Shown: piece after piece, positions 37,410 to 61,306 of the stretch
How positions within the stretch are numbered: the first letter of the stretch is position 1
How the letters are laid out: every line of letters begins with the position of its first letter
Assembly: GCA_945829445.1 (NCBI GenBank)
Contig: CALZUY010000004.1
Span: forward strand, 153-64,152
DNA: 64,000 bases
Source: an uncultured Clostridia bacterium
GTDB lineage: Bacteria > Bacillota > Clostridia > Oscillospirales > Butyricicoccaceae
Direction: 5' to 3'
Position numbers and translations under genes: made by a program
Notes under the pieces: model-generated
Told to the model about the DNA's origin: nothing
Databases searched by the model: none
Seen by the model: the letters and a program-made list of their open reading frames with translations, nothing else

Positions 37410-37424
37410 ATATTTTTAATCAAG

Positions 37425-38037
37425 GGTGGCAGCAGGCAGAGTAAATCTTACGGCTTGAGGTTCGGTTGGATTTCCCCGCAGGCGACCAGCCGTTGCCAGC
37501 TGGCGGTTTCCCATTATGGCCTGTGCCGGGTCGTCACCGATTCCGGGACCGAATTGCCACTTAGTCCGTACTGCAATCCTCTGCCTGCCCAATTACGACA
37601 GCCTAGGTGTTTTCCACGACAGTTGATCAGGTTCTTAGCCTCTTTTGCAAGAGAAGTTTCACAGATCGATACAGATTAAGCCATGGCCGTGGCATAAACC
37701 TGCGGATATCCGCTCCCCTTAACTCACTCAAGGCAGGCTACACTGCACACAGCGTCGTTGGACTCCAAAGAGTACTTTGCACCGCATTGCAGGTTCTTCT
37801 CCTGCCCCGTAAAGCATCCATCAATCCGAAGATGTTTAGGTGCTCCACAGCAACAGGTCTCCACGGAGAAAGGAATCATTCTTATGCCATTAAAAACTAT
37901 CCTAAATCCTTAACCCCCAGCATCCACCCCAAACTGGGCGTAAGAAGCAAACACCAGGGACTTCATCGATATGCCCGTCTACGGATTTTTAGGCCCGTCT
38001 TAGGAACGTGAAAAACTGACTAGAATACTGCGCCACC
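37425..38037 (-). ncRNA. ole: OLE RNA (ornate, large, extremophilic RNA), ~613 nt
   Basis: Minus strand reads GCAGTATTCTAGTCAG...GGGCCTAAAAATCCGT...GGGCATATCGATGAAGTCCCTGGTG...ACGCCCAG...GCTGGGGGTTAAGG...CCGTGGAGACC...GGATTGCAGTACGGACTAAGTGG...GGGAAACCGCC, blocks matching the recalled OLE consensus; 5' GGTGGCGCAG pairs with 3' CTGCTGCCACC; size and position after ispA are canonical; no credible ORF. Confidence 0.93.
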
Positions 38038-38044
38038 GCTACAT

Positions 38045-38073
38045 AATTTACCATATTGTTTGTAAATTTGCAA
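38045..38073 (-). promoter_or_regulatory. sigmaA-type promoter immediately upstream of ole
   Basis: TTGCAA-17-TAAATT with TG extension; predicted start site within a few nt of the OLE 5' end. Confidence 0.6.
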
Positions 38074-38112
38074 GTTGTCGTGCAATTTATTTACAAATTA
38101 TTCGCGATTGAT

Positions 38113-39003
38113 TCAGTATTTGCGCTCCGCCAGCGTGCGTGCAAGTGCCGGCAGCATACCGGCATCTGAAAACGGTGCCAATGCATGGATTGCCTGTTCT
38201 GACAGTTCGCGTACCAGTTCATGGCAGCGTGCAATGCCCAGCAGGGATGGGTATGTACTCTTACCGTTTTCTGCGTCCGAGCCAATCGGCTTGCCCAGTG
38301 CTTCCTCATCGCCCTCAATGTCCAGAATGTCATCCTGAACCTGGAACGCAAGGCCAATGCAACGCGCATATTCCAATGCAGCCTCTGTCTGTTCCGCGGT
38401 TGCGCCGCCGATCAGGCAGCCGAGCTGTGCCGCCACACAAATAAGGGCACCGGTCTTGAGTTCCTGAAGTGTTTTAAGCTGGTCAAGCGAAATCTGAGTT
38501 TCCTCCGCCTGCATGTCCAGAACCTGACCGCCGATCATGCCTTCCATACCGGAAGCACGCGACAGCGCGCGGATGGCCTTGAGCTGTACCTCAGCACCGA
38601 CCAGAGCTGTGTTTGCCGGATCAGATGCGGTCTCAAACGCCAGATTTAACAGACCGTCGCCCGCAAGAACCGCCATAGCTTCGCCATAGACCTTGTGGTT
38701 GGTCGGCTTGCCGCGGCGCAGATCGTCATCATCCATACACGGCAGGTCGTCGTGAATGAGTGAATACGTATGAATCATTTCCAATGCGCAGGCAAACGGC
38801 AGTGCTGCTTCGATATTCCCACCACTCAGACGGCAGAATTCCAGCACCAATGCCGGACGAAGCCGCTTGCCGCCTGCCATCGCAGAATAGCGGCAGGCAT
38901 CAAAAATTACACTCTGGCCTTTATCCTCCTGCGACTGCAAGTATTCCAGCAGCTTTTTTTCTACCATTGTGCTGTATGCCGCAAGCTGTTCATTCAGTGT
39001 CAT
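38113..39003 (-). CDS. ispA: Farnesyl-diphosphate synthase / geranyltranstransferase
   Basis: GGKRLRP, HDDLPCMDDDDLRRG, GQVLD, KTGA, FQVQDDILD. Confidence 0.96.
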   Translation of the reverse strand: MTLNEQLAAYSTMVEKKLLEYLQSQEDKGQSVIFDACRYSAMAGGKRLRPALVLEFCRLSGGNIEAALPFACALEMIHTYSLIHDDLPCMDDDDLRRGKPTNHKVYGEAMAVLAGDGLLNLAFETASDPANTALVGAEVQLKAIRALSRASGMEGMIGGQVLDMQAEETQISLDQLKTLQELKTGALICVAAQLGCLIGGATAEQTEAALEYARCIGLAFQVQDDILDIEGDEEALGKPIGSDAENGKSTYPSLLGIARCHELVRELSEQAIHALAPFSDAGMLPALARTLAERKY

Positions 39004-39006
39004 TGG

Positions 39007-39237
39007 TCATTCCCCTTCCTGCGCATCGAACGGCACTTCAACTTCTTCGCCGTTTTGTGTCGTCACCATCGTTACTTTCTGTTCCGCGCGGTCGAGCAAT
39101 CCGGACAGATAAGCCGAAAGCTTGGTCCCTTCCTCGAACAGCGCCATGCTTTTATCCAGCGGTGCCTCACCGGCTTCCAATTGCGTTACAATTTCTTCCA
39201 GGCGCTTCATCGCCTGTTCAAATGTCATGTCTTCCAT
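39007..39237 (-). CDS. xseB: Exodeoxyribonuclease VII small subunit
   Basis: TFEQAMKRLEEIV..LE.G...LD.S...FEEG. Confidence 0.95.
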   Translation of the reverse strand: MEDMTFEQAMKRLEEIVTQLEAGEAPLDKSMALFEEGTKLSAYLSGLLDRAEQKVTMVTTQNGEEVEVPFDAQEGE

Positions 39238-39248
39238 TATCTGTATCC

Positions 39249-40457
39249 TCAGCATTTCCGCTTAATCTGCTTTACTGTACAAACCGCGCCGCCTTTGGCA
39301 AACCGGACAAAAATTTCATCGTCGCGGCGTAGTTTGGCGCTGCTCGCAACAACCGTTCCGTCCTTCGTCACGACAGAATAACCGCGCGCCAGAACCTTGA
39401 GCGGGCTGTAAGCGTCGAGATATGCCGCCTGCCGGACAAATTCCTGCCTTCTCACCGCCAATATCTGCTGTATGGCGGCAGTCATCTGTCCGGTAACATG
39501 TTCCAGTTCAAAGCGTTTGTCCTGAATATATCCCATAGGGGTGCGCAGCTTTCTGCGCTTGTCCAATGCGTCCAGCTGTGCCCGTTTGCCCTGCAAAATT
39601 GCTGTCATATCACTGAGCAAGGCATTGTCCGCCGTGCGCAGAAAACGCCGGAGCTCTGCTGCATCCGGCACACAGATTTCTGCCGCATTGGATGGTGTGG
39701 AAGCGCGTGCATCTGCGGCAAAATCCGATATCGTAACATCCGGCTCGTGCCCCACGGCAGAAATCACCGGAATTTCCGATGCTGCAATGGCACGCGCTAC
39801 AATTTCTTCGTTAAACGCCCAGAGATCCTCCAGAGATCCGCCGCCGCGGCCTGTAATGATTACATCCGCTTCTCCGCGCCGGTTGACTGCTGCAATTGCA
39901 TTTGCGATATCAGCTGCTGCCCCTTCGCCCTGTACGAGGACAGGATAAATCTGTACTTTGGCCAGCGGATATCGGCGTTTGAGGATGCGCAGCATATCGC
40001 GCACCGCTGCGCCGGTCGGTGAAGTCACAATCGCAATCGTCTGCGGCAGACGCGGAAGCGGCTTTTTACGCGCTTCGTCGAACAGTCCTTCGGTATACAG
40101 GCGCTGCTTGAGCTGTTCGAACGCAATGGTCAGCGCACCGATGCCATCCGGCATCATGTCTGCAATATACATCTGATACTGCCCATACTTTGGATAACAG
40201 CTGATGCGTCCGCGTGCGATGACCTTCATGCCATTTTCCGGTCGAAAGCGCAGCCGTGCAGCGTCTGAACGGAACATCACTGCTGAAAGTACGCCGTCTT
40301 TGTCTTTGAGGGTCAGATATCTGTGACCGGAAGAATGTGCCTTGTAGTTGGAAATTTCGCCCTGAACATACAGGTTGCGAAACGGTTCATGTTCCTCCAG
40401 CATCAACTTAATCGCATGATTGACCTGCGAAACCGTATAAACTGTCTGTTGTTTCAT
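39249..40457 (-). CDS. xseA: Exodeoxyribonuclease VII large subunit
   Basis: GEISN...SSGH.Y.TLKD, TSPTGAAVRD, RGGGSLEDLWAFNEE, SAVGHE.D. Confidence 0.97.
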   Translation of the reverse strand: MKQQTVYTVSQVNHAIKLMLEEHEPFRNLYVQGEISNYKAHSSGHRYLTLKDKDGVLSAVMFRSDAARLRFRPENGMKVIARGRISCYPKYGQYQMYIADMMPDGIGALTIAFEQLKQRLYTEGLFDEARKKPLPRLPQTIAIVTSPTGAAVRDMLRILKRRYPLAKVQIYPVLVQGEGAAADIANAIAAVNRRGEADVIITGRGGGSLEDLWAFNEEIVARAIAASEIPVISAVGHEPDVTISDFAADARASTPSNAAEICVPDAAELRRFLRTADNALLSDMTAILQGKRAQLDALDKRRKLRTPMGYIQDKRFELEHVTGQMTAAIQQILAVRRQEFVRQAAYLDAYSPLKVLARGYSVVTKDGTVVASSAKLRRDDEIFVRFAKGGAVCTVKQIKRKC

Positions 40458-41392
40458 AGCAGCTCCCCGCTCAACAGTGCCGCCAGCACCGCAACGCCTA
40501 CCGCGTTGTCACCCGACAGCGTCGGTTCGGCAAAGTGTGCACCAAATGCATCGCGCATGCGCTGCTGGAGCCGACGATTGGACATGACACCGCCCGCACA
40601 CAACACTGGCAGATGCAGTTCTTCCACAGCCTGCCGTGTCGCATCCATCACGGCGCTGCCGACAATATCAATGGTATAGCGCGCAACGGTTTCACGCGGC
40701 GCGCCTGTCTGATACAGTTTTTCAATTTTATTCTGTGCACCGGACAGTGAAAAATGGCTGCCCGACACCTTTGGACGAAACGGCTTTTCCGGATGCGTGC
40801 AGGCATTTGCCAGCTGTTCCAGCTGTGCGCCAGCCGGGAACGAAAGCCCCAGCAGATTCCCGGCACGGTCAATCAACTGGCCTGCTGCCAGGTCGTCCGT
40901 GCCGCCAATGATTTCCGCCGAAAACAGCTGTCCATCGGGTTTGACATACAGCAGTTCTGTTGTGCCGCCGGACAAATGCCATGCCAGAAATGGCTCACGA
41001 AGCAGATGCAGGGCATCCGCTGACAGCGCTGCCGCCGCCAAATGTCCCTGTTGATGTGAGACCTCATAGAACGGTATGCCCTGTGCATGTGCCATACTGC
41101 GTGCAACACCTGCACCGGCAAGGAAGCACGGCATATAAGACCCTTCAACTGCACGCGGCCGGGTACTTGCAGCAATTGCCGTTACCTGTGTCCCGAACCC
41201 TTTTTCCAGTTCAAGAATGCGCTCCGGTAAGTGCTGCACATGCTGAAACAGCGCATCGCTCTGCCGCAGCCCGATGCGTCCTTCCGGCACCTCCAGCAGC
41301 CGTCCGGAATTATGCCACGCACGGCTCTCACTGTCAAACAGTGCCGCAGAGGTGCGGTAATTGGAGGTATCGACGCCGAAAAATCGTGCCAT
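40454..41392 (-). CDS. TsaD/Kae1-like (glycoprotease family) paralog
   Basis: GVDTSNY, SHQQGH, HLSGGTT, DLAAGQLIDR, AGGVMSN, GDNAVG. Confidence 0.8.
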   Translation of the reverse strand: MARFFGVDTSNYRTSAALFDSESRAWHNSGRLLEVPEGRIGLRQSDALFQHVQHLPERILELEKGFGTQVTAIAASTRPRAVEGSYMPCFLAGAGVARSMAHAQGIPFYEVSHQQGHLAAAALSADALHLLREPFLAWHLSGGTTELLYVKPDGQLFSAEIIGGTDDLAAGQLIDRAGNLLGLSFPAGAQLEQLANACTHPEKPFRPKVSGSHFSLSGAQNKIEKLYQTGAPRETVARYTIDIVGSAVMDATRQAVEELHLPVLCAGGVMSNRRLQQRMRDAFGAHFAEPTLSGDNAVGVAVLAALLSGELL

Positions 41393-41841
41393 CAGTCTGC
41401 CGCCAGCTCACGCGCTGCCGCACCGAGTACACCGTTGATATATGCCGGAACTTCCTCGGATTCATATTTTTTCGCCAGTTCCACAGCTTCATCAATCGCT
41501 GCTCCGACCGGAACATCTTCGACATACTGCATTTCATACAGTGCGAGCCGCAGCAGCGACATGGTCATGTGGGACAGACGGTTGGTATTCCAGTTGGTGG
41601 AATGCTTTTTAACCACTGCGTCCAGCTCCGCACAATGCGCACAGACGCCCATCACTGTATTGCGAATATACACCTTCTGATCCTCCGGCAGTTCACCCGC
41701 ATACAGCACGACATCGCCCGCCAATGAATCCATGACCGACTGTTCCAGACGGTCAGACAGCAGTTCCTTGTCACTGAACTGCTTGAAGCTCAGTTCAAAA
41801 ACCAGATGAAGTGCAATTTCTCTTGCTTCTTTTCTTCCCAC
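41392..41841 (-). CDS. nusB: Transcription antitermination factor NusB
   Basis: GTG start, RKEAREIAL, LLRLALYE, AIDEAVELAK.Y, YINGVLG. Confidence 0.95.
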   Translation of the reverse strand: MGRKEAREIALHLVFELSFKQFSDKELLSDRLEQSVMDSLAGDVVLYAGELPEDQKVYIRNTVMGVCAHCAELDAVVKKHSTNWNTNRLSHMTMSLLRLALYEMQYVEDVPVGAAIDEAVELAKKYESEEVPAYINGVLGAAARELAAD

Positions 41842-42049
41842 AGAAGTACCTCCGTATTGTGCCCGCCGTTCTGCGGCAGATCGGCACATTCATTTCGTTT
41901 TATGATTTATGCATTATTATACAACATATTGATGAGAATTGAAACCATAATCTGGTTTCAATCGGTATTCCTCTTTATAAATTGTTGTATTTGCTTTTCT
42001 GTCTTTCTCAGATTACAGGAACCACAATTCTTCCCGACGAAAAAGCCTG

Positions 42050-42093
42050 ATATAACAGAATAATTCTATCACATGGCAGGGCATTTGGCAAAT
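42050..42093 (-). repeat. Left copy of 44-bp inverted repeat, containing an outward promoter
   Basis: 37/44 identity (ungapped, counted by hand) to reverse complement of 44899-44942; minus strand TTGCCA-17-TAGAAT. Confidence 0.8.
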
Positions 42094-42104
42094 AGAAGGT
42101 GTAC

Positions 42105-42151
42105 AATAAAACCCCATAGACTGTGTGGTACACAAATCTATGGGGGTTTAT
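42105..42151. terminator. Terminator after mgtE
   Basis: AAACCCCATAGA/TCTATGGGGTTT inverted repeat. Confidence 0.78.
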
Positions 42152-42169
42152 TCATGATGATTGGGCCGA

Positions 42170-43582
42170 TTACAGCGTGCGGATCAGCAATGCCCATGCC
42201 AGACCATAGTAGGTCACAACTGCCACCAGGTCATTGATGGTGGTAATCAGCGGGCCGGATGCAACTGCCGGGTCAATCTTGAGCTTTTTAAATATAAGGG
42301 GAATGGTTGTTCCGCAGACACTGGACAGAATCATGGAAATCAACAGAGCAAAACCTGTACAGAAGGAAACAGAAAACGCAAGTGCTGCCGTCTCCCCTTT
42401 CAACAGGAATAAATACAGGCCAATCAATACAAAGGAGAGTGTGCCAAGGGCCAGGCCGTTACACAGGCCAACCCGCGCTTCCTTTGCTACGAGGGAAAGC
42501 TTCTGACGGAATGACAAATGCTCATCCATCAGCACCCGGATGGTAACAGCCAGGGACTGCGTTCCCACATTGCCTGCCATGTCCAGAATCAGAGACTGGA
42601 AGCAGACCACCAAAGTCAGACTCGCGACGACTTCTTCAAAAAGACCGACCACACTGGATACCAGAAGTCCCAAACCCAGCAGTACAATCAGCCAGGGAAG
42701 CCGCTTGGCAATGCTCTTCTTTAAGGGCTCCTGCAAATCTTCCTCTGCGGTCAGGCCTGCCAGCTTCGCATAGTCCTCTCCCATTTCCTCATCGACCAAC
42801 CGGGTAATGTCCTGAGCAGTCAGTACACCGGTTAGTTTATTCTGGGCGTCGAGTACCGGTATAGAGTCCTCAGAATAATCTTTAATCCGTTCGATACAGT
42901 CTTCTGTCTGTTCACTGGCGTAAACATACGGATAGGAAGTCACTGTGATCTCATCCAGTGCGGTTCCATCCCGGGCAATAATCAAATCCTTCAGATCAAT
43001 CGCACCGACCAGCGTTTCATCCTCGTCGACAACATAAATCGTAGAAATGTTGTCATTTTCAGCAGCCTGATCCACCAATTCCCGCATTGCCTGCCGAATG
43101 CCGATACCGGTATGGACAGAAATGAAGTTCGTGGTCATCTTGCTGCCGATTTCATCTTCGTCAAATGAACTGAGCAGTACAATTTCTCTCCTGACATCGG
43201 CATCCATCAGATCGAGAAGAATATTGCGTTCCTGCTTTTCCATCTGGCACAGATAATCTGCAGCAATTGCAGGTTCCAGCTGAGACAGGATTTCCACCTG
43301 CTTCCGAATACTCAGCTCTCCGATATAATCATTCAGCCTGTCCGAATAGGCAAGCACATTGGCCAAAGCCTGTGTTCCCAGCACGCTGTAGAGCTTGCAG
43401 CGTTCCTCTTTTTTCAGCAGTTCGATTGCTGCTGCGATATCATTTTCATGATAGGAAAGAATCCGATCCTCCATGAGCTTGGGCGTGAGATTGCTTCTTA
43501 CAATTTCCGCAATTTCGTTCTTATAATCGCGATGCTGTGTGGAAATTCCGATTCCTTCCGGATGATTCTTTTTTGTGTTCAT
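42170..43582 (-). CDS. mgtE: Magnesium transporter MgtE
   Basis: CBS pair, KRLPWL, MAGNVGTQSL, DPAVASGPLITTIND; GGAGG RBS before ATG 43582. Confidence 0.95.
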   Translation of the reverse strand: MNTKKNHPEGIGISTQHRDYKNEIAEIVRSNLTPKLMEDRILSYHENDIAAAIELLKKEERCKLYSVLGTQALANVLAYSDRLNDYIGELSIRKQVEILSQLEPAIAADYLCQMEKQERNILLDLMDADVRREIVLLSSFDEDEIGSKMTTNFISVHTGIGIRQAMRELVDQAAENDNISTIYVVDEDETLVGAIDLKDLIIARDGTALDEITVTSYPYVYASEQTEDCIERIKDYSEDSIPVLDAQNKLTGVLTAQDITRLVDEEMGEDYAKLAGLTAEEDLQEPLKKSIAKRLPWLIVLLGLGLLVSSVVGLFEEVVASLTLVVCFQSLILDMAGNVGTQSLAVTIRVLMDEHLSFRQKLSLVAKEARVGLCNGLALGTLSFVLIGLYLFLLKGETAALAFSVSFCTGFALLISMILSSVCGTTIPLIFKKLKIDPAVASGPLITTINDLVAVVTYYGLAWALLIRTL

Positions 43583-43956
43583 TGTCCTTCGCCTCCTTTG
43601 CACATCCAGCATAAAACGAATCGAGTGATTCGCCGTGGCAAAGTCAGGCATAGATTGGCTCCGTTACAGGCAAAAATGGGCATAAAAATACCATTGTCAC
43701 CTGTAATGCAACCTACGCTACACCTGCTCTGCAATGATGTAGTGCAGTTTTCAAACCGGACAATGGCGACCTATAATTGTTGGCGCAGCAAAGCGCCGTC
43801 AGAACACAGACGATATGCGGCTGCACAACTTCTGACAGTATAGGAATCCCATGCCCGAACTTCGACTACAACTACTACCGTCCATGATCTCACCTCACAA
43901 AAATGAATTTGCTGATTTCGTGTGTTCATTATATCAAATACCATCCTGAGATTCAA
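43583..43956 (-). promoter_or_regulatory. mgtE promoter and ~340-nt structured leader containing a 28-codon uORF
   Basis: TTGAAT-17-TATAAT at 43928-43956; uORF 43799-43885 with GAGGTG RBS; several stems. Confidence 0.55.
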
Positions 43957-44130
43957 GCAAAATTGTGCCTGCTATGAACAAGCCGGCTGTGCTCGCAACA
44001 GCCGGTCTTATCTTAATCATTCAAAATATGACCCATCTTCTGCTTGTATCACAATCATCTCTGGTTTAAAAAATCTTGATAATGCATACCGCACTCCGTT
44101 TCCGCAGACACTGTCCCAGAGGTGATTGCT

Positions 44131-44316
44131 ATGAAACTGGAACTTCCCCTCGGCTTCGGGATGGCACTGGCGCAGAATGAAGCCGCTATGAAAAAATTTG
44201 AATCGCTGACGGAATCTGAAAAACAGGCAGTTCTTCAGAAAACACACAGCGTCCGCTCCAAACATGAAATGCAGCAGCTGGTTTCCAGCCTTGATGCACA
44301 AAGTACAGTCGAATAG
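44131..44316 (+). CDS. Small hypothetical protein
   Basis: GAGGTG RBS; MKLELPLGFGMALAQNEAAM... Confidence 0.7.
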   Translation: MKLELPLGFGMALAQNEAAMKKFESLTESEKQAVLQKTHSVRSKHEMQQLVSSLDAQSTVE

Positions 44317-44355
44317 GATGCTGTTCCCGCGGCATACTATTTTCGGGGTGATGAT

Positions 44356-44526
44356 ATGGCAAAGAAAGCCGACAGGCCGGATCGGACAGAGGATCTGCGC
44401 CTCAATCCGGAGCAGCGCCTGTGTGCCAAATTTGACGCAGTCAGCATAGCCAATTTCCCTGTCGCATCGAGAGATGTGATGGGTGTGCGTGTGCTGGACA
44501 ACTGTGCAGAGGAGCATATCATGTAG
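44356..44526 (+). CDS. Small hypothetical protein (56 aa, below ORF-track cutoff)
   Basis: GGGGTG RBS; MAKKADRPDRTEDLRLNPEQRLCAKFDAVSIANFPVASRDVMGVRVLDNCAEEHIM*. Confidence 0.55.
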   Translation: MAKKADRPDRTEDLRLNPEQRLCAKFDAVSIANFPVASRDVMGVRVLDNCAEEHIM

Positions 44527-44612
44527 CTCCCGCCGCCATATGGCGGCTACATACTTCTTTTGTGACATGGCGGCCTGCTCTGACATACTCTGGTATATGG
44601 GAGGTCGATAAT

Positions 44613-44831
44613 ATGACGACCATGATCGCAACTGTGCTGGAGGTCCGTCCGGATAATTTACTGGTTCGTGACCGCCGAACATCGCAGGAAGTCCTCGTTC
44701 ACACATCGTTTGCGCGCAGATTCCGCCTTGGCGATGTTGTGCATATTCTGTTCAGCGGTGCAATGACCATGAGCATTCCGCCGCAGATCACTGCAATCCG
44801 CATTTTCAGGATCGGCACCTACCGGTGCTGA
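44613..44831 (+). CDS. Small OB-fold-like hypothetical protein (YobA-like)
   Basis: GGAGG RBS; ATVLEV...GD.V.I.FSGAMTMSIPPQI. Confidence 0.65.
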   Translation: MTTMIATVLEVRPDNLLVRDRRTSQEVLVHTSFARRFRLGDVVHILFSGAMTMSIPPQITAIRIFRIGTYRC

Positions 44832-44845
44832 CCACAGTGAACATC

Positions 44846-44878
44846 AGCCCGGCAGCCGGATGGCCGCCGGGCTTTCTG
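44846..44878 (+). terminator. Terminator after small-ORF cluster
   Basis: AGCCCGGCAGCC/GGCCGCCGGGCT stem then TTT. Confidence 0.6.
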
Positions 44879-44898
44879 TATGGGCATTTGCCAATTTG

Positions 44899-44942
44899 AT
44901 TTGCCAAATGCGCCCTGATATGATAGAATTACTCTGTTATAT
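44899..44942 (+). repeat. Right copy of 44-bp inverted repeat, containing the likely trmK-operon promoter
   Basis: TTGCCA-17-TAGAAT on plus strand; inverted partner at 42050-42093. Confidence 0.8.
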
Positions 44943-45045
44943 TGGGGCTCTTCCGTTAGAGAAGAGCCTCATAATATCTATAACATGTTTTCCATTTCAT
45001 ATGGATTGAAAAAACATTGAGATTTCTTGTGCAGGGAGGAATACT

Positions 45046-45753
45046 ATGCAGGACAATCGAATGCATCTGACACCGCGCCTGCGCACGATTATGCAACAGG
45101 TGCCGCAGGGCGCACGGCTCGCCGATATTGGCACGGATCATGCGCTCATCCCGGCGGCATTGCTGCGCAGAAAGCGCATTGCTTCTGCGATTGCATCGGA
45201 TATCCGTACTGGCCCGCTGGAGAGTGCGGCACGCACAGCCGAACAGTTTGGCTTTGAGAGCGAAATTTCACTGCGGCTCGGCGCGGGACTGTGTACGGTC
45301 AAACCGGAAGAAGCCGATACCATTGTCATTGCCGGCATGGGCGGTGAGACCATCGCGCAGATTCTGGAAGATGATCCATGGGCGCTGGATGGCGACCACC
45401 TGCTGTTATTGCAGGCAATGACAGCGCAGGCACAGCTGCGGCAGTACCTTGCGGCACACGGCGGTATCATACAAAAGGAAACACTGTGCCGCGAAGGCAA
45501 ACGCATGTATACAGTAATGACTGTGCGCGGCGGCGGAGATTATGTAGAAAAATCGCTGTCCGACTGCTGTATTTCGGATGCGCTGCTGTGCGATCCGCTT
45601 GCGGCGGATTATCTGGCCCGGCTGCTCAGCCGGGAACAGAAAATCTGTGCCTCGCTCGAAGCGGCACAGCATCAGAAGCCGGACGAGCTTGCACTGCACC
45701 GCGGCAATGTCCGTGTGCTGTCCGACGCATTGAATGAACTGGAAAAGGAGTGA
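45046..45753 (+). CDS. trmK: tRNA (adenine22-N1)-methyltransferase
   Basis: LTPRL, ADIGTDHA, IVIAGMGGETI, LLLQAM. Confidence 0.93.
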   Translation: MQDNRMHLTPRLRTIMQQVPQGARLADIGTDHALIPAALLRRKRIASAIASDIRTGPLESAARTAEQFGFESEISLRLGAGLCTVKPEEADTIVIAGMGGETIAQILEDDPWALDGDHLLLLQAMTAQAQLRQYLAAHGGIIQKETLCREGKRMYTVMTVRGGGDYVEKSLSDCCISDALLCDPLAADYLARLLSREQKICASLEAAQHQKPDELALHRGNVRVLSDALNELEKE

Positions 45754-46535
45754 CAGACATGATTCAGGTAAAACAGGTATTGCAGTGTCTGGAACAGGCG
45801 GCACCGTATGAACTGGCGGAGAGCTGGGACAACGTCGGCCTGCTGGTTGGTGACCCGGAGGCCGAGGTGGAAGGCGTGCTGTGCGCGCTGGATATCACCG
45901 AAGCAGTTGTGGAGGAAGCAGCGGAACGCGGCTGCAATCTGATTGTGGCGCATCATCCGGTCATCTTCACTTCGGTCAGCCGTGTCACAGCGGATACGGT
46001 AACAGGAAAAATCCTGATTTCGATGATCCGCAAGGGGATTTCCGGCATCTGCATGCATACCAATATGGATTGTGCATCAGCGGGTGTCAATGACCTGCTC
46101 GCAGCATCACTTGGCCTGACCGATGTGGAAAATATGGAGGCAGGCGAAGGCGGAAATCTCGGCCGCGTCGGAAATCTGCCGCGCGCCATGACGCTGGAGG
46201 AATTTGCAAAGCATGTCAGGCTGTCACTTGGTGCGGGTGGTGTGCGCGTTGCAGATGGTGGAAAACCGGTGCGCCGCGTGGCAGTCGGCGGCGGCGCCTG
46301 TGGAAAGATGATGGACTTTGCTGTCCGCAAGGGTGCGGATACCTTTGTCATCGGTGATTGCAGCTATGATATTATGATGAAGGCACATGATATCGGATTG
46401 AATTTGATAGATGCAGGTCATTTCCCGACAGAAAATCCGGTTGCCCGCGGCTTCCGTGACCTGATCGCAGAGCAGTTTCCTGACCTCAATGTGAATGTTT
46501 CCGATGTGCACTGCGATTGCATTTCATTTTATTAA
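45750..46535 (+). CDS. Nif3-like dinuclear metal centre protein
   Basis: AESWDNVGLLVG, IVAHHP, HTNMD, DAGHFPTE. Confidence 0.93.
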   Translation: MTDMIQVKQVLQCLEQAAPYELAESWDNVGLLVGDPEAEVEGVLCALDITEAVVEEAAERGCNLIVAHHPVIFTSVSRVTADTVTGKILISMIRKGISGICMHTNMDCASAGVNDLLAASLGLTDVENMEAGEGGNLGRVGNLPRAMTLEEFAKHVRLSLGAGGVRVADGGKPVRRVAVGGGACGKMMDFAVRKGADTFVIGDCSYDIMMKAHDIGLNLIDAGHFPTENPVARGFRDLIAEQFPDLNVNVSDVHCDCISFY

Positions 46536-46553
46536 AGAATAAAGGAGTTCCCT

Positions 46554-48329
46554 ATGCCATTAGATGCTGTGTGTCTGCTGGCCACTGTACGCGAAATCAG
46601 CACGCGCATGGCCGGTGGTCGAATTGATAAAATTTATCAGCCGGAGCGCGATGAAATCGTGCTGTCTGTCCGGTTAATGCGCGGTGGCGTGAAGCTGCTG
46701 CTGTCTGTGGGTGCCGGTGCGCCCCGGATGCATTTTATTGAAACCGGACGGGAAAATCCCGCAGCTCCCCCGATGTTCTGCATGCTTCTGCGCAAGCACC
46801 TGCAGGGCGCAAAAATTGTCTCTGTCACCTCCCCTGACATGGAACGCATGGCAATTATTGAGTGCGACACAGTGGATGAGATGGGTGTGCCGAGCAAAAA
46901 ATATCTCGCTGTTGAGATGATGGGCAAGTATTCCAATATCATCCTGTACGGCGAGGACGGACGGATTCTGGACGCCATCAAGCGTGTCGACGGCGATACC
47001 TCCGGCAAACGGCAGGTTTTGCCCGGATTGTTTTACCGCATGCCGCCCCCGCAGGACAAGGTAAATCTGCTGGAAGTCTCTCAGGCAGGCATTGCGGCTG
47101 CAATCAAACATGCGGATGATGACACAGCGGCTGACCGCTGGCTGCTCAGCCATTTCAAGGGACTGTCTCCCCTGCTCTGCCGTGAGCTGGCATGCCGTGC
47201 CTGCGGGGAAACGGCAAAGCCAATGTGTGACCTGACGGATGGTGAACGCAGCAGTCTTGCGGATGTCCTCGCGGATTTCGTCCAGATGATTGAAGACAAC
47301 CGTATGAAACCGTATCTGCTGACCCATGCGGAAGATGGCAGTGTTTTCGATTTCACGGTTATGCCGATCACGCAATACGGCGATCTGATGCACAATCAGC
47401 AGGCGGACAGCTTTTCCCAGCTCCTTGCAGAGTTTTACGAGAAAAAGAGCAGCATGGAGCACATCCGCCGCCGTGCGCAAAATATGACGCATACCATTCA
47501 GAATGCGCGTGACCGCATGCGCCGCAAGCTGGCGGCACAGCGGCAGGAGCTGAGCCGCTCTCAGAACCGCGACAAATACAAGCGCCGCGGTGATCTGATT
47601 ACCGCGAATCTGTACCAGATTGAACCGGGTGCACGCAAGGTGCGTGTCATCGATTATTATGATCCGGCATGCCCGGAGGTGGAACTGGATCTGGATATCC
47701 GCCTCTCCCCCCAGCAGAACGCACAAAAGCAGTTCAAGCTGTATACCAAGGCGAAAAATGCCGAGGAAAAGCTGACCGAACAGATTGCACAGGGCGAACA
47801 GGAACTGGCTTATCTGGACAGTGTTCTGGAATCCATTTCAGAAGCGGAAAATCTCACCGATCTCGCACAGATCAATGAGGAACTTGTGAATACAGGCTAT
47901 CTTTCCGCCAAGCAGGATAAGAAAAAGCGCCGCCGTGCCAAGCCGGTACAGGGCAAGCCATTCCATTATAAGACAAGCGATGGCTTTGATGTGTTTGCAG
48001 GTAAGAACAACACACAGAATGATTTGCTGACGCTGAAAACCGCATTTAAGAGCGACATGTGGTTTCACACGCAGAAAATTCACGGTTCACATGTCATTTT
48101 GGTCTGTGACGGGCGTGATCCGACCAATGAAGCGATGACAGAAGCGGCTGAAATTGCCGCGTGGCATTCGCAGGCACGCGGTTCCGCACAGATTCCTGTG
48201 GACTATTCCCAGGTGCGCAACATCAAAAAACCAAACGGTGCCAAGCCCGGCATGGTCATTTATCATGTCTATCAGACGGCTTTTGTCACGCCGGATGAAA
48301 AGAAAATCGAAAAAATGCGTATCGAATGA
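46554..48329 (+). CDS. rqcH: NFACT/Rqc2 ribosome quality-control factor (FbpA-like)
   Basis: MPLDA, PPMFCMLLRKHL, EMMGKYSN, NAQK.FK.Y.K, GKNN.QND.L, HTQKIHGSHV. Confidence 0.93.
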   Translation: MPLDAVCLLATVREISTRMAGGRIDKIYQPERDEIVLSVRLMRGGVKLLLSVGAGAPRMHFIETGRENPAAPPMFCMLLRKHLQGAKIVSVTSPDMERMAIIECDTVDEMGVPSKKYLAVEMMGKYSNIILYGEDGRILDAIKRVDGDTSGKRQVLPGLFYRMPPPQDKVNLLEVSQAGIAAAIKHADDDTAADRWLLSHFKGLSPLLCRELACRACGETAKPMCDLTDGERSSLADVLADFVQMIEDNRMKPYLLTHAEDGSVFDFTVMPITQYGDLMHNQQADSFSQLLAEFYEKKSSMEHIRRRAQNMTHTIQNARDRMRRKLAAQRQELSRSQNRDKYKRRGDLITANLYQIEPGARKVRVIDYYDPACPEVELDLDIRLSPQQNAQKQFKLYTKAKNAEEKLTEQIAQGEQELAYLDSVLESISEAENLTDLAQINEELVNTGYLSAKQDKKKRRRAKPVQGKPFHYKTSDGFDVFAGKNNTQNDLLTLKTAFKSDMWFHTQKIHGSHVILVCDGRDPTNEAMTEAAEIAAWHSQARGSAQIPVDYSQVRNIKKPNGAKPGMVIYHVYQTAFVTPDEKKIEKMRIE

Positions 48330-48338
48330 GAAAATATC

Positions 48339-48367
48339 TTGTCGTTTGTGCCATTCTATGGCATAAT
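48339..48367 (+). promoter_or_regulatory. sigmaA-type promoter of guaA
   Basis: TTGTCG-17-CATAAT with TG extension. Confidence 0.5.
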
Positions 48368-48442
48368 TAAAAGAATAAATCTTTTTCAGGCATAATGCGC
48401 ATGCACATGCCAGTTCACGAAAGAAAAAAGGAGTATATTCGG

Positions 48443-49984
48443 ATGAACAATCATCAGTATGTTCTGATTATCGACTTCGGCGGACAGTACAATCAGCTGA
48501 TTGCCCGCCGTGTGCGCGAAAACAATGTATATTGTGAGGTCAAGCCATATACAACTCCGCTGGAGGAATTAAAGGCGCTGAACCCGATCGGTATTATCTT
48601 TACCGGAGGACCGAACAGCGTGTATCTGGAGGAATCTCCCCATATTTCCAAGGAGATTTTTGAATGGGGTGTTCCGGTTCTTGGTATCTGCTATGGCTGC
48701 CAGCTGATGGCATATACACTGGGCGGCGAAGTCACACCGGCACAGGATGATTCTGCCCGTGAATACGGCAAAACCAAGACCTATTACAATACCGACTGCA
48801 AGCTGTTCCAGGGCCTGCCGGAAGAGGGCATCTCCTGGATGAGCCACAGCGATTATATGGCACGTGTACCGGAAGGCTTTGCACTGGTTGCACATTCCGA
48901 TGCCTGCCCGAACGTTGCAATTGCTGACGAATCGCGCGGCTTCTATGGCGTACAGTACCATCCGGAGGTCAATCACACCGAGCATGGCCAGGATATGCTG
49001 CATAACTTCCTGTACAATGTCTGCGGTGCAGTCGGTGACTGGACAATGGAGGATTACTGCAAAACCGCAATTGCCGCTGTCCGCGAGCAGGTCGGTGACG
49101 GCAAGGTGCTGCTTGGCCTGTCCGGTGGTGTTGATTCCTCTGTTGCAGCAGCTCTGCTGGCAGAAGCGGTCGGCAACCAGCTGACCTGTGTCTTTGTTGA
49201 CCACGGTCTGATGCGTAAGAACGAAGGCGATGAAGTTGAAGCTGCCTTCAAAAAGTGGGATATCAACTTTGTACGCGCGGATGCAGAACAGCGATTCCTC
49301 GACAAGCTGGCTGGAGTCACTGAGCCGGAGAAAAAGCGCAAGATTATTGGCGCAGAATTTATCCGTGTCTTTGAGGAAGAATCCAGCAAGGTCGGCCAGG
49401 TGGATTTCCTGGTACAGGGCACGATCTATCCGGATGTCATTGAATCCGGCAAGGGCGATGCAGCTGTCATCAAGAGCCATCATAATGTCGGCGGCCTGCC
49501 GGACGATGTACAGTTCCAGATCATTGAACCGCTCCGCATGCTGTTCAAGGATGAAGTCCGCCAGCTTGGCCGTGAGCTTGGCCTGCCGGAATATCTTGTC
49601 ATGCGCCAGCCGTTCCCGGGTCCGGGTCTTGCAATCCGCATCATCGGTGAAATCACCAAGGAAAAAGCAGATATTCTGCGCGATGCAGACGCTATTTTCC
49701 GCGAGGAAATTTCCAATGCCGGCTTGCAGTATTCGATCAACCAGTATTTTGCTGTACTGACCAACATGCGTTCGGTCGGCGTTATGGGTGATGCGAGAAC
49801 CTACGACTATACGCTTGCGCTGCGCGGCGTCACGACGACAGACTTCATGACTGCCGACTGGGCGAGAATTCCGTACGAGGTTCTGGACAAGGCATCGAGC
49901 CGTATTGTCAACGAAGTTGCCGGTATCAACCGTATTGTCTATGATATCACTTCCAAGCCGCCCGCAACAATCGAGTGGGAATAA
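48443..49984 (+). CDS. guaA: GMP synthase (glutamine-hydrolysing)
   Basis: [40 protein letters not shown]. Confidence 0.98.
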
Positions 49985-50250
49985 TTTCAAGATTAAATTC
50001 ATTGATAAATAAGTTATAAAATAACCCTATTTCGTTAGAACTCAGTTGTTTCAAACGGAATAGGGTTAAATTTTTTTGCTACACAAAAACTGGTGCAGCA
50101 AAAACGTAGCACTTTTTTGATTTATAACGATATCTATAATCCAACGATGAAAGCAATTTATCGTCGTTGAAATAAATTCGTACATTTTTATCCACTTCGA
50201 CTTTGGACAAAATAATTGTCCAAAACACTGGGTTGCATCACTTCTGCCCC

Positions 50251-50278
50251 AAAAGGGTACGCCATTTCGGCGTACCCT
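50251..50278 (-). terminator. Terminator of the leftward accessory operon
   Basis: AGGGTACGCC/GGCGTACCCT stem then T4 on minus strand. Confidence 0.7.
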
Positions 50279-50302
50279 CTGGTTCATGTGACTGAGCTTT
50301 AA

Positions 50303-50527
50303 TTATGTTGCATAGAATTCGTCCACCGCCGCAAAGAATGCGTCGATGTTGTCCCAGCTGGACATCGGCGGGATATCGCAGCCGGAGGAAATGACAAAAT
50401 TCGGATGGGAGCAGATCTTCTTCATGACATCCAGCGTTGCCCTGCGGACAGACTCCGGCGTACCATTGCAGAACTCTCCTGCCGGATCGACATTGCCCAT
50501 GCAGATGGTATCTGCCGGAACATTGTT
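50303..50527 (-). pseudogene. C-terminal fragment of URO-D / MtaA-CmuA-type methyltransferase
   Basis: VPADTICMGNVDP...GTPESVR...NFVISSGCDIPP....NIDAF; in-frame stop directly upstream (50528-50530), no RBS. Confidence 0.8.
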
Positions 50528-50535
50528 CTACACGG

Positions 50536-51708
50536 TCATGCGCTCAGATTATTCGCACGGTATTTCCCCGGCGGCATGCCAACATATTGCTTGAAGATGC
50601 GGGTAAAATAGCTCTGATCGTTTAAACCAACGGCACTGGCAATCTGAGACAGCGTCATATTGGTACAATACAGATATGCCTTACTGCGTTCTACCCGAAG
50701 GCGGTTGGTATATTCTGTAAACGTATATCCCAACTCGTCCTTCATTATATGGCACAGATAGGACTTTGACACATATACTTTACCTGCCACCTCATCAAGC
50801 GTCAGCTTTTCAGACAGATGCTCCTGAATATACGAAGACACTTGTCGGATAATATTCTGATGCTTGGCATCGTTGAAATCAAAGACCAGATCAAAGAACC
50901 GATGCAGCATATTGCCAAGCCAGACGTCCAGCGCGTCAAAGTCTGTCAGCTGGTCGATCTCCGCGACGCTGCGGTCACACAGAGACAGCACTGCGTTGAC
51001 ATCCGCGCCGCTGTCCGCTGCCGCGCGGGACATCAGCGTAATCAGTTCCCGGAACCGGCGTTTCAGTGCCTGCAGATCGTTGCCGCTGGTCATGTACAGC
51101 TCCAGCATCAGGATATTCAACGACTGCTGTGCTTCTTTTTTGTTTCCCGAACGAATCAGCTGCTGAAGACGGCGTTCTTCGTCAATCGGATAGCTGGTCG
51201 GCAGGTCATCCGGCTGCGCCACAGCAATCATGGTGCGCAGTGCTTCCTCGTCGATCGCCACCATCATTTGCCCGCCGGTCAGATATCCGTACATTGCGCG
51301 CACGACCTCGCCCAATGACCGGGCTTTTTCCCGTGTAAACAACGGAATGTCCTCCGGATTGCCCTGCTCCAGCGACGTGTCCTTCCGTATCTTTCCTGGT
51401 TCATCCAGAAGGAACGGCCCGATGATCATACCGTACTCTTCGGCATATCCCGCCGGGTGGAGCGACGTTGCAATAAAGTGATAGCCCCGCGGGCAGTGAT
51501 ACCGATACTGTCCGCTCCAGCGCGCTGCTTTCTTACAGCAGGTGCAGTGCATCTCTGCTGCCGTGCAGCAGCCGTCTTTCAGCCGGCAGCTGCTGCGGAA
51601 CGGTGCGCGGACAAAACTCTTCTGCTCCAGATACATCAACGCGCAGTGCACGCCGGTCAGCTGCTGGATATATTCACTGAACTGAACGGTCTGTTCCTGA
51701 AATCCCAT
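50536..51708 (-). CDS. AraC-family regulator with N-terminal PocR-like sensor domain
   Basis: YRYHCPRG...IIGPFL sensor motif; C-terminal LTLDEVA..VYVSKSY..., DQSYFTRIFK..G..PGKYR. Confidence 0.88.
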   Translation of the reverse strand: MGFQEQTVQFSEYIQQLTGVHCALMYLEQKSFVRAPFRSSCRLKDGCCTAAEMHCTCCKKAARWSGQYRYHCPRGYHFIATSLHPAGYAEEYGMIIGPFLLDEPGKIRKDTSLEQGNPEDIPLFTREKARSLGEVVRAMYGYLTGGQMMVAIDEEALRTMIAVAQPDDLPTSYPIDEERRLQQLIRSGNKKEAQQSLNILMLELYMTSGNDLQALKRRFRELITLMSRAAADSGADVNAVLSLCDRSVAEIDQLTDFDALDVWLGNMLHRFFDLVFDFNDAKHQNIIRQVSSYIQEHLSEKLTLDEVAGKVYVSKSYLCHIMKDELGYTFTEYTNRLRVERSKAYLYCTNMTLSQIASAVGLNDQSYFTRIFKQYVGMPPGKYRANNLSA

Positions 51709-51812
51709 CGTCTGCCTCCCATTCTTCCGCACAACACATTTCATTATTATGATGTTGCCATCCCTTCGGGCTGGCTGCGTTCCTGCCTGGCCGAAGCGCG
51801 AAGACAGTCGAA

Positions 51813-53123
51813 TCAGCCGTAGACCTTGCCGATACATTCACGGCACAGATCTGTCCATTTGCGGAACCGACCCGGATCGCCCTGAATGGTATGGGTGTCT
51901 TTCAGAATAATTTCAAACGGCGTGCCCTTGCCGTCCGTCATCAGTTTGCTGGTGTACTTGCGCATGAAGTCCTCATCCCAGCCGCTGGTCACATAGGACG
52001 GATTGGGCTTGCAGGAGAAGATATAATTCATTCCCATCTGATCGCGCATGGATCTCACATCTGCCCACGGGGAAACAGAGATGCGGCGCAGGTTGCTGAT
52101 CTTGGTAACGTCCTGCAGCTTGTTCTCCAGATTATCGCAGCAGCCATAGGACGACAGGCCGAACTTCTCCAGCAGTCTCTTCTCATAATCAATTGCGTAT
52201 TCCTTCGTCATCTCCGGGGATACCGAGATGAACTCCTGTGATTCTGCCGACGCCCACAGATTCTTGAAGGTCAGCTTTTCACCCGGCTTTGGCAGCTCCA
52301 GATCGTTGGTATAGCCGAAGCCGCCAGTTCCGCTGTACTGACAGGTGTTGTTCAGGTCGAGCAGCCCCATATCCAGCAGCTGCTGATACAGATTCAGATA
52401 GCCTTCTTCCAGAATTCCGCACAGCTTATGCATCTCTTCCGGATAATCGTACAGATCGTACAGCGCATTCTCATAGCCGCGAACCTTGGTATATGTCTCC
52501 ATCCAGGAAAAGCCGATGAAGGTGGTGCCGGTCCAGTGGCAGTCCAGAATATCGCCCAGCAGTTCCTGATGAATTTCCCATTTGCATTCGGATCCTTCCT
52601 TGTCGTAGATGACTTTCGGCGGAATCAGCTTGTATATCTGATCGATGTCATCCAGATCGTCAATCAGCGGATTGAATTCTGCGGCGGTCGTGTCAAACTG
52701 GTATCCGGGTCTCCAGGACGGGTTGACCTCTGAAATCATTGGAATGTGAACCCACTCGTTCGTAAATGCATTGCGCGCCGACTGGCCTTCCATCGTCCAG
52801 CCGGTGTTGCCAATTATTTTGAGGCAGTCCCAGCGCATCTCAGCCGGTACATCGTCGTGGATGAGTTCCGCACGGGCAATGCGGGCGCGCAGCGTCCATT
52901 CGATCTCACGCAGCATCTCATCTTCACATACCAGCGTCTCCGGCGGAACGATTTCGCGCCAGGCACCTTCCGGCGAGCAGTTGATGACCGGCTGATCGGT
53001 CTTTAAATCGTTGTGAGCATACCATAGCTTGCGGCGCTCTTCCATAATTGGCTGATTGGCCAGTTCAGCCACCTTCTTGGCCAGTTCGCGGATGGCCTGC
53101 CGTTCATTGTCCTTGATGGTCAT
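51813..53123 (-). CDS. Uroporphyrinogen-decarboxylase-like TIM-barrel protein (function unknown)
   Basis: RGYENALYDLYD.PE, ESQEF..VSPEM..EY, YGCCD, RISVSPWAD, KPNP, LKDTHT. Confidence 0.7.
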   Translation of the reverse strand: MTIKDNERQAIRELAKKVAELANQPIMEERRKLWYAHNDLKTDQPVINCSPEGAWREIVPPETLVCEDEMLREIEWTLRARIARAELIHDDVPAEMRWDCLKIIGNTGWTMEGQSARNAFTNEWVHIPMISEVNPSWRPGYQFDTTAAEFNPLIDDLDDIDQIYKLIPPKVIYDKEGSECKWEIHQELLGDILDCHWTGTTFIGFSWMETYTKVRGYENALYDLYDYPEEMHKLCGILEEGYLNLYQQLLDMGLLDLNNTCQYSGTGGFGYTNDLELPKPGEKLTFKNLWASAESQEFISVSPEMTKEYAIDYEKRLLEKFGLSSYGCCDNLENKLQDVTKISNLRRISVSPWADVRSMRDQMGMNYIFSCKPNPSYVTSGWDEDFMRKYTSKLMTDGKGTPFEIILKDTHTIQGDPGRFRKWTDLCRECIGKVYG

Positions 53124-53231
53124 ACTTCATTCTCCTTTCATACATTGTTGGTTTCTGTTTGTTTTTCTTTCAGCAACACCGCACAATCAAATCGGCGGCG
53201 CTTTGACACAGTTATAATTCCCTTTTACATT

Positions 53232-53390
53232 GCGTAACCGATTACGCTTGTGATTATAACAAAGCAAAACCCGAATGTCAACACTGATATTTGCATTAAA
53301 CCGGCAATAATATTTAATAAATCGGCATTATTAAAGCTAATATACTCTGTAAATTTTTCATATTTCCATTCATTGCGTAAACGATTATAC
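53232..53390 (-). promoter_or_regulatory. Consensus sigmaA promoter with two LacI/CcpA-type operators
   Basis: TTGACA-17-TATAAT (53253-53281); GCGTAACCGATTACGC (53232-53247) over the start site; GCGTAAACGATTATAC (53375-53390). Confidence 0.75.
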
Positions 53391-53498
53391 ATGATTTGAT
53401 CATTCTCGTTGTATTTTCAAAGTTGACTGCATTATTGGATGGCTGTGCTCCCCTAATAAAATTTCTCTCAGCGCACATACTGTTCCTGAGGTGATTTT

Positions 53499-53768
53499 AT
53501 GGCAAAGCAAGGCATGAAGCGTCCGGAACGGACGCATACCCAGCCCAGAAACGAGGTTGCTCCTGTGCCGGAATTGCAGGGAAAGGCCAAAACCGGAAAG
53601 AGCAAAGCTAATCCGATTATTTCAGGAACAGTTTCGCCCTCGCAGAAGGTATTCCACTCACATCCACACACGATGGAAAAGCCAATCTCTGATATTTATT
53701 CCGTGATAGACAACGATCTGGCAAGGGATAATCTGGAAAATGATATTCCGGAGCCAGACCTTCCGTGA
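53499..53768 (+). CDS. Small hypothetical protein
   Basis: GAGGTG RBS; MAKQGMKRPE...; shared terminator downstream. Confidence 0.7.
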   Translation: MAKQGMKRPERTHTQPRNEVAPVPELQGKAKTGKSKANPIISGTVSPSQKVFHSHPHTMEKPISDIYSVIDNDLARDNLENDIPEPDLP

Positions 53769-53805
53769 CGGGATTGTTCTTTAGCATTCTTCTGAAATTC
53801 CCCTG

Positions 53806-53851
53806 ACAAAAACCAGACCTTGAGATGATTCTTCATCTCAAGGTCTTTTGT
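53806..53851. terminator. Bidirectional terminator
   Basis: AGACCTTGAGATG/CATCTCAAGGTCT with T-runs on both sides. Confidence 0.82.
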
Positions 53852-53876
53852 CACAATATCAGAACACATCCCGGCT

Positions 53877-54386
53877 TCAGACTGTATTGTCTGATATACT
53901 GACCGCTTCCATGGCAACACTTCCCCCGCGGACAATTTCCAGACGATTGGGATAATGATTTTCCAGCAGCCGGATCAAATCGTTGTTCTTCTGTTCGGGC
54001 TGAACGCATTCAAGCAATGCAGCTTCTGCATCATAATCAATCAGTTTGGCGTTGAAAATCTCCCGGATATAATTCAGCCTTGTCATGTCCTGTTCCGAGC
54101 ATGTGTGAATCTTTACAAACATCAATTCTTTCATATGAATTGGCGTATCGGTAAGATCGATTACTTTGACCACTTCGACACAGCGGTTGAGCTGCTTTTT
54201 GACCTGTTCAAAGGTCTGGTCATCACTTGTCAGACTGATTGTCATCCGTGAGAGCGTCGCATCTTCCGTAACCCCTACGGTCAGGCTGTCCAGATTATAG
54301 GATTTGCTGGAAAACAGGCCGGAAACGCGGGCAAGGACACCAATTTCATTTTCAACGAATAAACTCAGCCATCTTTTTTTAACCAT
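53877..54386 (-). CDS. ilvN: Acetolactate synthase regulatory subunit (ACT domain)
   Basis: LSLFVENEIGVLARVSGLF..YNLDSLTVG, KQLNR..EVVKV, KELMFVKI. Confidence 0.88.
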   Translation of the reverse strand: MVKKRWLSLFVENEIGVLARVSGLFSSKSYNLDSLTVGVTEDATLSRMTISLTSDDQTFEQVKKQLNRCVEVVKVIDLTDTPIHMKELMFVKIHTCSEQDMTRLNYIREIFNAKLIDYDAEAALLECVQPEQKNNDLIRLLENHYPNRLEIVRGGSVAMEAVSISDNTV

Positions 54387-61270: not shown

Positions 61271-61306
61271 AAAAATCTTCTCCGTTATTTTCAGTGATGA
61301 CAGCTG

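Follow-up and report, generated by a model that had tools for sequence, protein, structure and literature searches.

Locus organization

We analysed a 64,000-nt stretch of DNA (contig CALZUY010000004.1; hereafter the window) in which a magnesium transporter gene, mgtE, and three small open reading frames (ORFs) lie between two similar sequences in opposite orientation, referred to here as the left and right arms. Each arm contains a predicted promoter that reads outward, the left one toward the nusB-ispA-OLE operon and the right one toward the trmK-nif3-rqcH operon. The source is a pig-gut Butyricicoccus species: its trmK product is 92% amino-acid identical to that of Butyricicoccus porcorum BB10, and the sequencing runs that hold the sequence are pig-gut metagenomes. 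A first-pass annotation of this DNA had proposed that the arms are the ends of an invertible segment acted on in trans, the ends of a defunct element, or a duplicated promoter that serves two RNA-metabolism operons. The last of these proposals fits the evidence and is adopted here, in the form that the arms are probably related sigma-A promoters of their own operons that were brought back to back around mgtE by an inversion of ~98 kb. The arms and the operons downstream of them are as follows.

42039..42093, minus strand: left arm, the predicted distal promoter of the nusB operon (P1), from repeat and promoter searches, with orthologs upstream of nusB in L125 and L001; -35 TTGCCA at 42091-42086, TGTG at -18..-15, -10 TAGAAT at 42068-42063, predicted +1 G at 42056
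44899..44953, plus strand: right arm, the predicted trmK-nif3-rqcH promoter, with orthologs upstream of trmK in L002, L003 and L007; -35 TTGCCA at 44901-44906, TATG at -18..-15, -10 TAGAAT at 44924-44929, predicted +1 G at 44936
37410..41889, minus strand: operon downstream of the left arm (Pfam; Rfam; RNA contigs in pig-gut metatranscriptomes)
45046..48329, plus strand: operon downstream of the right arm (Pfam, NCBIfam; RNA contigs)

The arms form an inverted repeat that contains two outward-facing promoters

A base-by-base count gave 37 of 44 identical positions between 42050-42093 and 44899-44942, which agrees with the first-pass count, and a repeat search extended the arms to 55 nt (42039-42093 and 44899-44953), which are 78% complementary (43/55) and separated by 2805 nt. 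The arms share no exact run longer than 13 nt (ATTTGCCAAATGC). A 42-nt degenerate pattern matched only the two arms in 64 kb, with 0 matches expected from 100 shuffles. Within 41500-45500, the best ungapped inverted-repeat score was 26.5, compared with 14.0 +/- 1.5 (maximum 18) for 60 dinucleotide shuffles, which places it ~8 standard deviations above the shuffle mean. These results confirm that the inverted repeat is real and non-random.

Promoter scoring also upheld the earlier description of the sites themselves, as both arms contain TTGCCA-17-TAGAAT with 10/12 matches and an upstream TG, reading outward, and Pfam, Rfam and NCBIfam searches identified the flanking operons toward which the two copies had been said to fire. 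Each arm is located after the terminator of the preceding gene and before its own co-oriented operon, and both operons are expressed in pig-gut metatranscriptomes. From their sequence, we infer that both arms are active start sites with G at +1.

Copies of the promoter in relatives are restricted to nusB and trmK

Orthologs of the trmK-side promoter are present in B. porcorum (L002), a Butyricicoccus metagenome-assembled genome (MAG; L003) and Candidatus (Ca.) B. stercorigallinarum (L007), and orthologs of the nusB-side promoter are present in B. porcorum (L125) and Ca. B. stercorigallinarum (L001). We scanned the loose pattern TTGCCA-N14-TGRTARAATTRNNNTGT over 185,579 species genomes and found two matches per Butyricicoccus genome where both loci were assembled, always at nusB and trmK; the remaining 58 matches were unrelated generic promoters in other taxa. 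Pattern, motif and homology searches revealed no third copy in the 64-kb window, and a scan of metagenomes from the Joint Genome Institute (JGI) gave nothing relevant, its sole match being an unrelated Acholeplasmatales-type promoter. The genome-wide check for further copies that had been suggested at first pass thus uncovered no high-copy repeat. A dispersed repeat resembling a repetitive extragenic palindrome (REP) or a miniature inverted-repeat transposable element (MITE) was ruled out by the two copies per genome and their restriction to one clade. A more distant clade (given as L004-L010) has neither copy, and its nusB has a proximal promoter only.

The placement of the two copies differs among relatives. 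The B. porcorum BB10 copies share a contig and a strand (minus), at ~33.5 kb and ~132.5 kb, and so form direct repeats with a spacing of 99 kb. Those of Ca. B. stercorigallinarum occur on separate contigs and differ in their upstream neighbours: nusB is preceded by urease accessory genes and trmK by a homolog of window 62041-62275. The arrangement for which the first-pass annotation had advised looking, with nusB and trmK back to back and no cassette between them, did not appear in these relatives, where the operons are 99 kb apart or on separate contigs.

Over a 45-nt core, the window and B. porcorum orthologs match at 40/45 positions for nusB and 39/45 for trmK. Paralogs match at 37/45 in the window, 36/45 in B. 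porcorum and 35-38/45 across species, and they are unrelated beyond ~55 nt. Because orthologs are only slightly more alike than paralogs, the arms show no recent homogenisation, and by these comparisons the resemblance is older than the split from B. porcorum. Gene conversion between the arms was considered and rejected, as the window trmK copy matches the B. porcorum nusB copy at 38/45 positions and the window nusB copy at 37/45. Three blocks do not vary among the seven copies: TTGCCAA, AT.TG.TA.AATT and TGT at -1/+1/+2. They correspond to the -35, the TRTG/-10 block and the positions around the predicted +1 G.

That two strong consensus-like promoters merely came to resemble each other by chance is very unlikely. 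About 15 of the 45 positions are set by the sigma-A consensus, and the pair in Ca. B. stercorigallinarum matches at only 27/45, both of which are what chance would allow; however, the window pair still matches at ~22/30 of the positions that sigma does not contact, the shuffle controls described above predict no such repeat, and the B. porcorum pair is equally similar. The similarity could instead come from a copied promoter or from shared constraint.

Synteny points to a probable ~98-kb inversion at the junction between the operons

The features between the arms, where synteny with B. porcorum is interrupted, are as follows.

42105..42152, minus strand: strong intrinsic terminator of mgtE immediately inside the left arm, with a 16-bp stem and then a T-rich tail (inverted repeat search)
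42170..43582, minus strand: mgtE magnesium transporter gene, 470 aa (Pfam MgtE_N, CBS and MgtE; TIGR00400)
within 43583..43956, minus strand: mgtE 5' leader of ~340 nt (no Rfam match)
43956-43928, minus strand: mgtE promoter-like site, TTGAAT-17-TATAAT with TG (promoter scoring)
43982..44006, no strand assigned: bidirectional terminator-like hairpin between the divergent units
44131..44831, plus strand: three small ORFs, orfA (44131-44316), orfB (44356-44526) and orfC (44613-44831)
44847..44873, plus strand: terminator-like hairpin after orfC (sequence)

Homology between the window and B. porcorum extends from 37546 to 42096, which is the upstream edge of the left arm, and begins again at 44082, from which point orfA-C, the right arm and trmK follow in the opposite contig direction. 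Expressed in coordinates of B. porcorum, ~132.5 kb is joined to ~34.35 kb in the window and the strand changes, which fits a single ~98-kb inversion relative to strain BB10; the mgtE unit occupies the 2 kb in between (42097-44081). According to this reconstruction, the inversion would have set the two operons back to back, with one breakpoint bordering the nusB promoter on its upstream side, the other upstream of orfA, and a lineage-specific mgtE unit at the junction. Because the inversion would have placed the operons in this way, the inverted geometry of the arms appears to be a by-product of gene order rather than a recombination substrate. Relative to B. porcorum, the window also contains insertions at ~50088-53470, 53770-56899 and 57696-61988.

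A second rearrangement was evident when window 44950-62345 was compared with L004-L008 and L007, in which the sequence preceding trmK matches window 62041-64000 in inverted orientation. An older, ~17-kb inversion is implied, with one breakpoint immediately before the trmK promoter, and in L007 the promoter module stayed with trmK through this older event. As judged from these alignments, breakpoints fall at the edges of transcription units and promoters travel with their operons, such that the promoter module would move with its own operon during genome rearrangement.

A single orientation argues against an invertible segment

An invertible segment would be expected to occur in more than one orientation. 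Ten independent assemblies with identical MgtE (from NCBI, ENA and Logan) contain rqcH-nif3-trmK-orfC-orfB-orfA followed by mgtE-nusB-... in the same orientation, with both arms letter-for-letter unchanged and no arm chimeric. We also evaluated eight contig sets from metagenomes or isolates, which comprise four pig-gut metagenomes and four further runs. Contigs from both groups cross each arm, and no strand-change joint was found; among the further runs, single contigs (37 kb and 6.3 kb) span 41500-45500 collinearly at ~98.5% identity. These observations indicate that inversion is not common, rather than that it never occurs. An apparent 147-nt deletion that fused P1 to the proximal nusB promoter-like site (P2, below) proved to be co-occurring B. 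porcorum-like sequence, with 125 divergent nt between.

Flipping of 42094-44898 between the arms by a site-specific recombinase from another locus is extremely improbable. In its favour, a 55-nt inverted repeat flanks a discrete 2.8-kb interval, and an Xer-like tyrosine recombinase is encoded beside the nusB promoter in B. porcorum. However, the arms are non-chimeric and unaltered in one orientation throughout the assemblies and contig sets, they are direct repeats in B. porcorum, and since the promoters lie within the outward-facing arms, a flip would leave both operons driven as before. The interior encodes no dedicated recombinase, and the window showed no homolog of the Xer-like recombinase, with not every window ORF profiled and the genome beyond the window not covered. 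The longest exact run between the arms is moreover only 13 nt, and exact identity of this length is too short for efficient RecA-mediated exchange. In B. porcorum, the Xer-like recombinase (349 aa; L125 4678-5727) is divergent from the nusB promoter, and another MAG has an ortholog (81% identical) immediately following trmK-nif3 (L008 3299-4312), so that, depending on the genome, the gene adjoins either of the two operons.

We also considered whether the arms are remnants of the ends of a transposon or insertion sequence (IS) that kept their outward promoters, which is scarcely credible. The geometry is that of terminal inverted repeats with outward promoters, and the mgtE gene between them looks lineage-specific. 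Against this origin, Pfam, NCBIfam and PHROGs searches found no transposase in the interior, and no target-site duplication is apparent (42029-42038 cttcccgacg versus 44954-44963 cgttagagaa). The copies number only two per genome, always at nusB and trmK, and in relatives they are separate from each other at the orthologous operons. The interior is not conserved as a unit either, as the small ORFs remain with trmK in B. porcorum, which lacks the mgtE gene there, and synteny breaks inside the interior at 44082.

The nusB-ispA-OLE operon has distal and proximal promoter-like sites

The operon downstream of the left arm contains the following features, all on the minus strand.

41897..41925: proximal nusB promoter-like site (P2), TTTCAA-17-TATAAT (alignment, upstream sequences)
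41392-41889: nusB, with a likely true start near 41833-41841 (149 aa in public assemblies)
40454-41392: TsaD/Kae1-like gene, 312 aa, between nusB and xseA (Pfam)
39249-40457: xseA (Pfam)
39007-39255: xseB (Pfam)
38113-39003: ispA (Pfam)
37410-38052: OLE RNA (Rfam RF01071, 457.6 bits)

P2 is common to the window and the outgroup L010 and is degenerate in B. porcorum and Ca. B. stercorigallinarum. Those two relatives have lost a recognisable P2 and kept the distal P1, which suggests that the distal copy is functional, and because of this pattern we take P1 to be the working nusB promoter. The distribution of P1 and P2 looks like promoter turnover in progress. Folding revealed no significant structure in the nusB leader (z -0.3), and for this reason the possibility that the repeat is an RNA element common to both leaders was ruled out.

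Within the operon, the placement of the TsaD-like gene between nusB and xseA is widely conserved in Oscillospiraceae (578 related loci). Word depths in pig-gut metatranscriptomes were ~500-4000 for OLE RNA and 1-22 for nusB-ispA, such that in four metatranscriptomes OLE RNA was approximately two orders of magnitude above the upstream mRNA of the same operon. This excess is consistent with processing and stability of the RNA, or with a promoter of its own.

The trmK-nif3-rqcH operon has a conserved leader hairpin

The features downstream of and next to the right arm are as follows, all on the plus strand.

44887: extra TTTGCCAA repeat, 13 nt before the -35 copy (motif search)
44943..44971: conserved hairpin close to the 5' end of the trmK leader (folds of the leaders from the window, L002 and L007; alignment)
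45046-45753: trmK
45750-46535: nif3
46554-48329: rqcH

The word depth of trmK-rqcH in pig-gut metatranscriptomes was 3-6. The leader hairpin is stable, begins 7 nt past the predicted start and is kept in four species with one G-C to G-U change; because no T-run follows, it is not a terminator. Repeats of TTTGCCA(A) at 13-nt spacing lead up to and include the trmK -35, with two in the window (44887-44907) and three in B. porcorum (L002 about 7796-7830).

The interior comprises two divergent transcription units

The first-pass annotation had treated the ~2.8 kb between the arms as a single cassette of mgtE and small ORFs without a recombinase or transposase. Its gene content was correct, and Pfam, NCBIfam and PHROGs searches bear out the absence of those enzymes, but the interior is two divergent transcription units rather than one unit. 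The MgtE assignment scores 257.8 bits against TIGR00400 (cut-off 232.75). Outside the species, the nearest MgtE homologs are only 72-81% identical and are located in unrelated gene contexts, whereas neighbouring genes are 88-99% identical to those of B. porcorum; the mgtE unit therefore looks lineage-specific. By comparison, B. porcorum keeps orfA-orfC before trmK but without mgtE, and their products are 87-95% identical in amino acids; the three ORFs gave no Pfam, NCBIfam or PHROGs match save a weak sub-threshold OmdA match for orfA. Metatranscriptome word depth was ~2-5 for mgtE, and the small ORFs had none.

A search of 41850-45100 against Rfam returned no M-box and no other family. In a relative with a 77%-identical MgtE (L164 5664-5936), the mgtE leader contains three perfect tandem copies of a 92-nt unit; the window leader is weakly like one such unit and has no array. 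The leader may be an undescribed Mg-related leader. A minority contig in two runs skips 368 nt, at window 43760-44129 between the mgtE promoter and orfA, which is probably a strain variant at the synteny junction. Only in this species does mgtE lie directly upstream of the nusB...ispA-OLE cluster (window 37410-43582). A link between the OLE ribonucleoprotein complex and Mg2+ tolerance has been reported (PMC11332333), and the adjacency of mgtE and OLE may be coincidental.

Promoter class and possible co-regulation

The adopted reading holds that two related Gram-positive extended -10 sigma-A promoters (TTGCCA, 17-bp spacer, TRTG, TAGAAT) would drive separate housekeeping operons, as a promoter module of ~45-55 nt that appears at exactly two loci in a small Butyricicoccus subclade. 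TRTG is present in 7/7 copies, as is the predicted +1 G, and 6/7 have a T three bases downstream of the -10. In the rrn P1 promoters of Bacillus subtilis, a G at +1 and a T three bases after the -10 mark promoters that are sensitive to guanosine triphosphate (GTP), and similar sequences of GTP-sensitive promoters occur across Firmicutes (PMC3113569). By analogy, both of these translation-related operons may respond to GTP level through the conserved T-rich sequence between -10 and +1, and their expression may thus be coupled to growth rate.

We also considered whether a common transcription factor binds a shared operator, composed of ATTTGcCAAAT over the -35 and AGAATtATTCT from -10 to +1, which would make nusB-OLE and trmK-rqcH a two-operon regulon. 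This idea is compatible with related sigma-A promoters, to which it adds a specific regulator, and we regard it as unlikely. Both sub-motifs occur only at the two arms in 64 kb, each promoter is kept across species at 39-40/45, and extra TTTGCCA(A) repeats precede the trmK copy. However, the palindromes are not kept in other copies, for example those of Ca. B. stercorigallinarum at nusB (GCATTGCCAACC) and trmK (AAAATTGTGTT), and the columns invariant in 7/7 copies are almost exactly the sigma-A contacts and the start site. When the module was compared by eye with the consensus operators of CodY, the Fur family, Rex and CcpA, we saw no convincing match. A dedicated operator is thus weakly supported by the aligned copies.

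A broader version, which we consider rather doubtful, is that a cis-regulatory unit of ~50 nt arose once in the Butyricicoccus subclade and was copied to the second operon, where both copies would respond to one signal, either a transcription factor or GTP sensing through the +1 G. If so, rRNA antitermination, OLE RNA, tRNA modification and ribosome rescue would be linked in a small regulon of recent origin. Co-regulation of the two operons is possible.

Several observations weigh against related sigma-A promoters joined by a single inversion. The low match of the Ca. B. stercorigallinarum pair over the 45-nt core falls further, to ~13/30, at positions that sigma does not contact. The RNA contigs, at depths of 3-12, end at 41892 on the nusB side and start at 45081 on the trmK side; because they stop at 41892, nusB transcription could come mainly from the proximal P2. 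Logan contigs and assemblies lose rare variants, and an inversion present below a few percent is compatible with the data. The module is found in only three or four species, such that the evolutionary inferences rest on few genomes. Finally, the 98-kb inversion is unpolarised, and either arrangement could be ancestral.

Taken together, these results would replace a candidate invertible or mobile element with two ordinary promoters, which has little significance beyond annotation. They also suggest that one promoter module can serve two unrelated housekeeping operons and that a shared module can be carried through large rearrangements whose breakpoints fall exactly at the edges of transcription units. 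The OLE operon appears to have gained a second, distal promoter and an mgtE neighbour, which may interest those who study the OLE complex and Mg2+ tolerance.

Comparison with known systems

Invertons such as fimS of E. coli, the capsule promoters of Bacteroides, and flgB and cwpV of Clostridioides difficile resemble this locus in having inverted repeats around a segment next to operons. Inverton promoters are contained within a short segment (100-700 bp) that flips, and the two orientations occur side by side, whereas the promoters described here are the repeats themselves, face outward and enclose 2.8 kb of ordinary genes for which one orientation was seen. Insertion sequences with outward promoters, such as IS10 (pOUT) and ISAba1, share the terminal inverted repeats with outward promoter elements, but the arms have no transposase, target duplication or dispersal and are fixed to orthologous operons.

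The left side of the locus follows the OLE neighbourhood of Bacillota, in which OLE RNA is downstream of ispA in a nusB/xseAB/ispA cluster. It differs in that the mgtE unit is directly upstream and a distal promoter has been added to what appears to be the ancestral proximal one. OLE RNA itself has been described elsewhere (PMC11332333, PMC10898510).

The promoters most resemble the '-16 region' class of sigma-A promoters (TRTGnTATAAT), which includes B. subtilis rrn P1, in their 17-bp spacer, TRTG and T-rich stretch from -10 to +1 (PMC3113569). They differ from the generic extended -10 class in a -35 of TTGCCA, a -10 of TAGAAT or TAAAAT, and the additional similarity of spacer and flanks between copies. 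Like the rrn P1 class, they have a predicted +1 G and serve genes related to translation and RNA metabolism; unlike B. subtilis rrn P1, their start is predicted from sequence alone and their GTP sensitivity is proposed by analogy.

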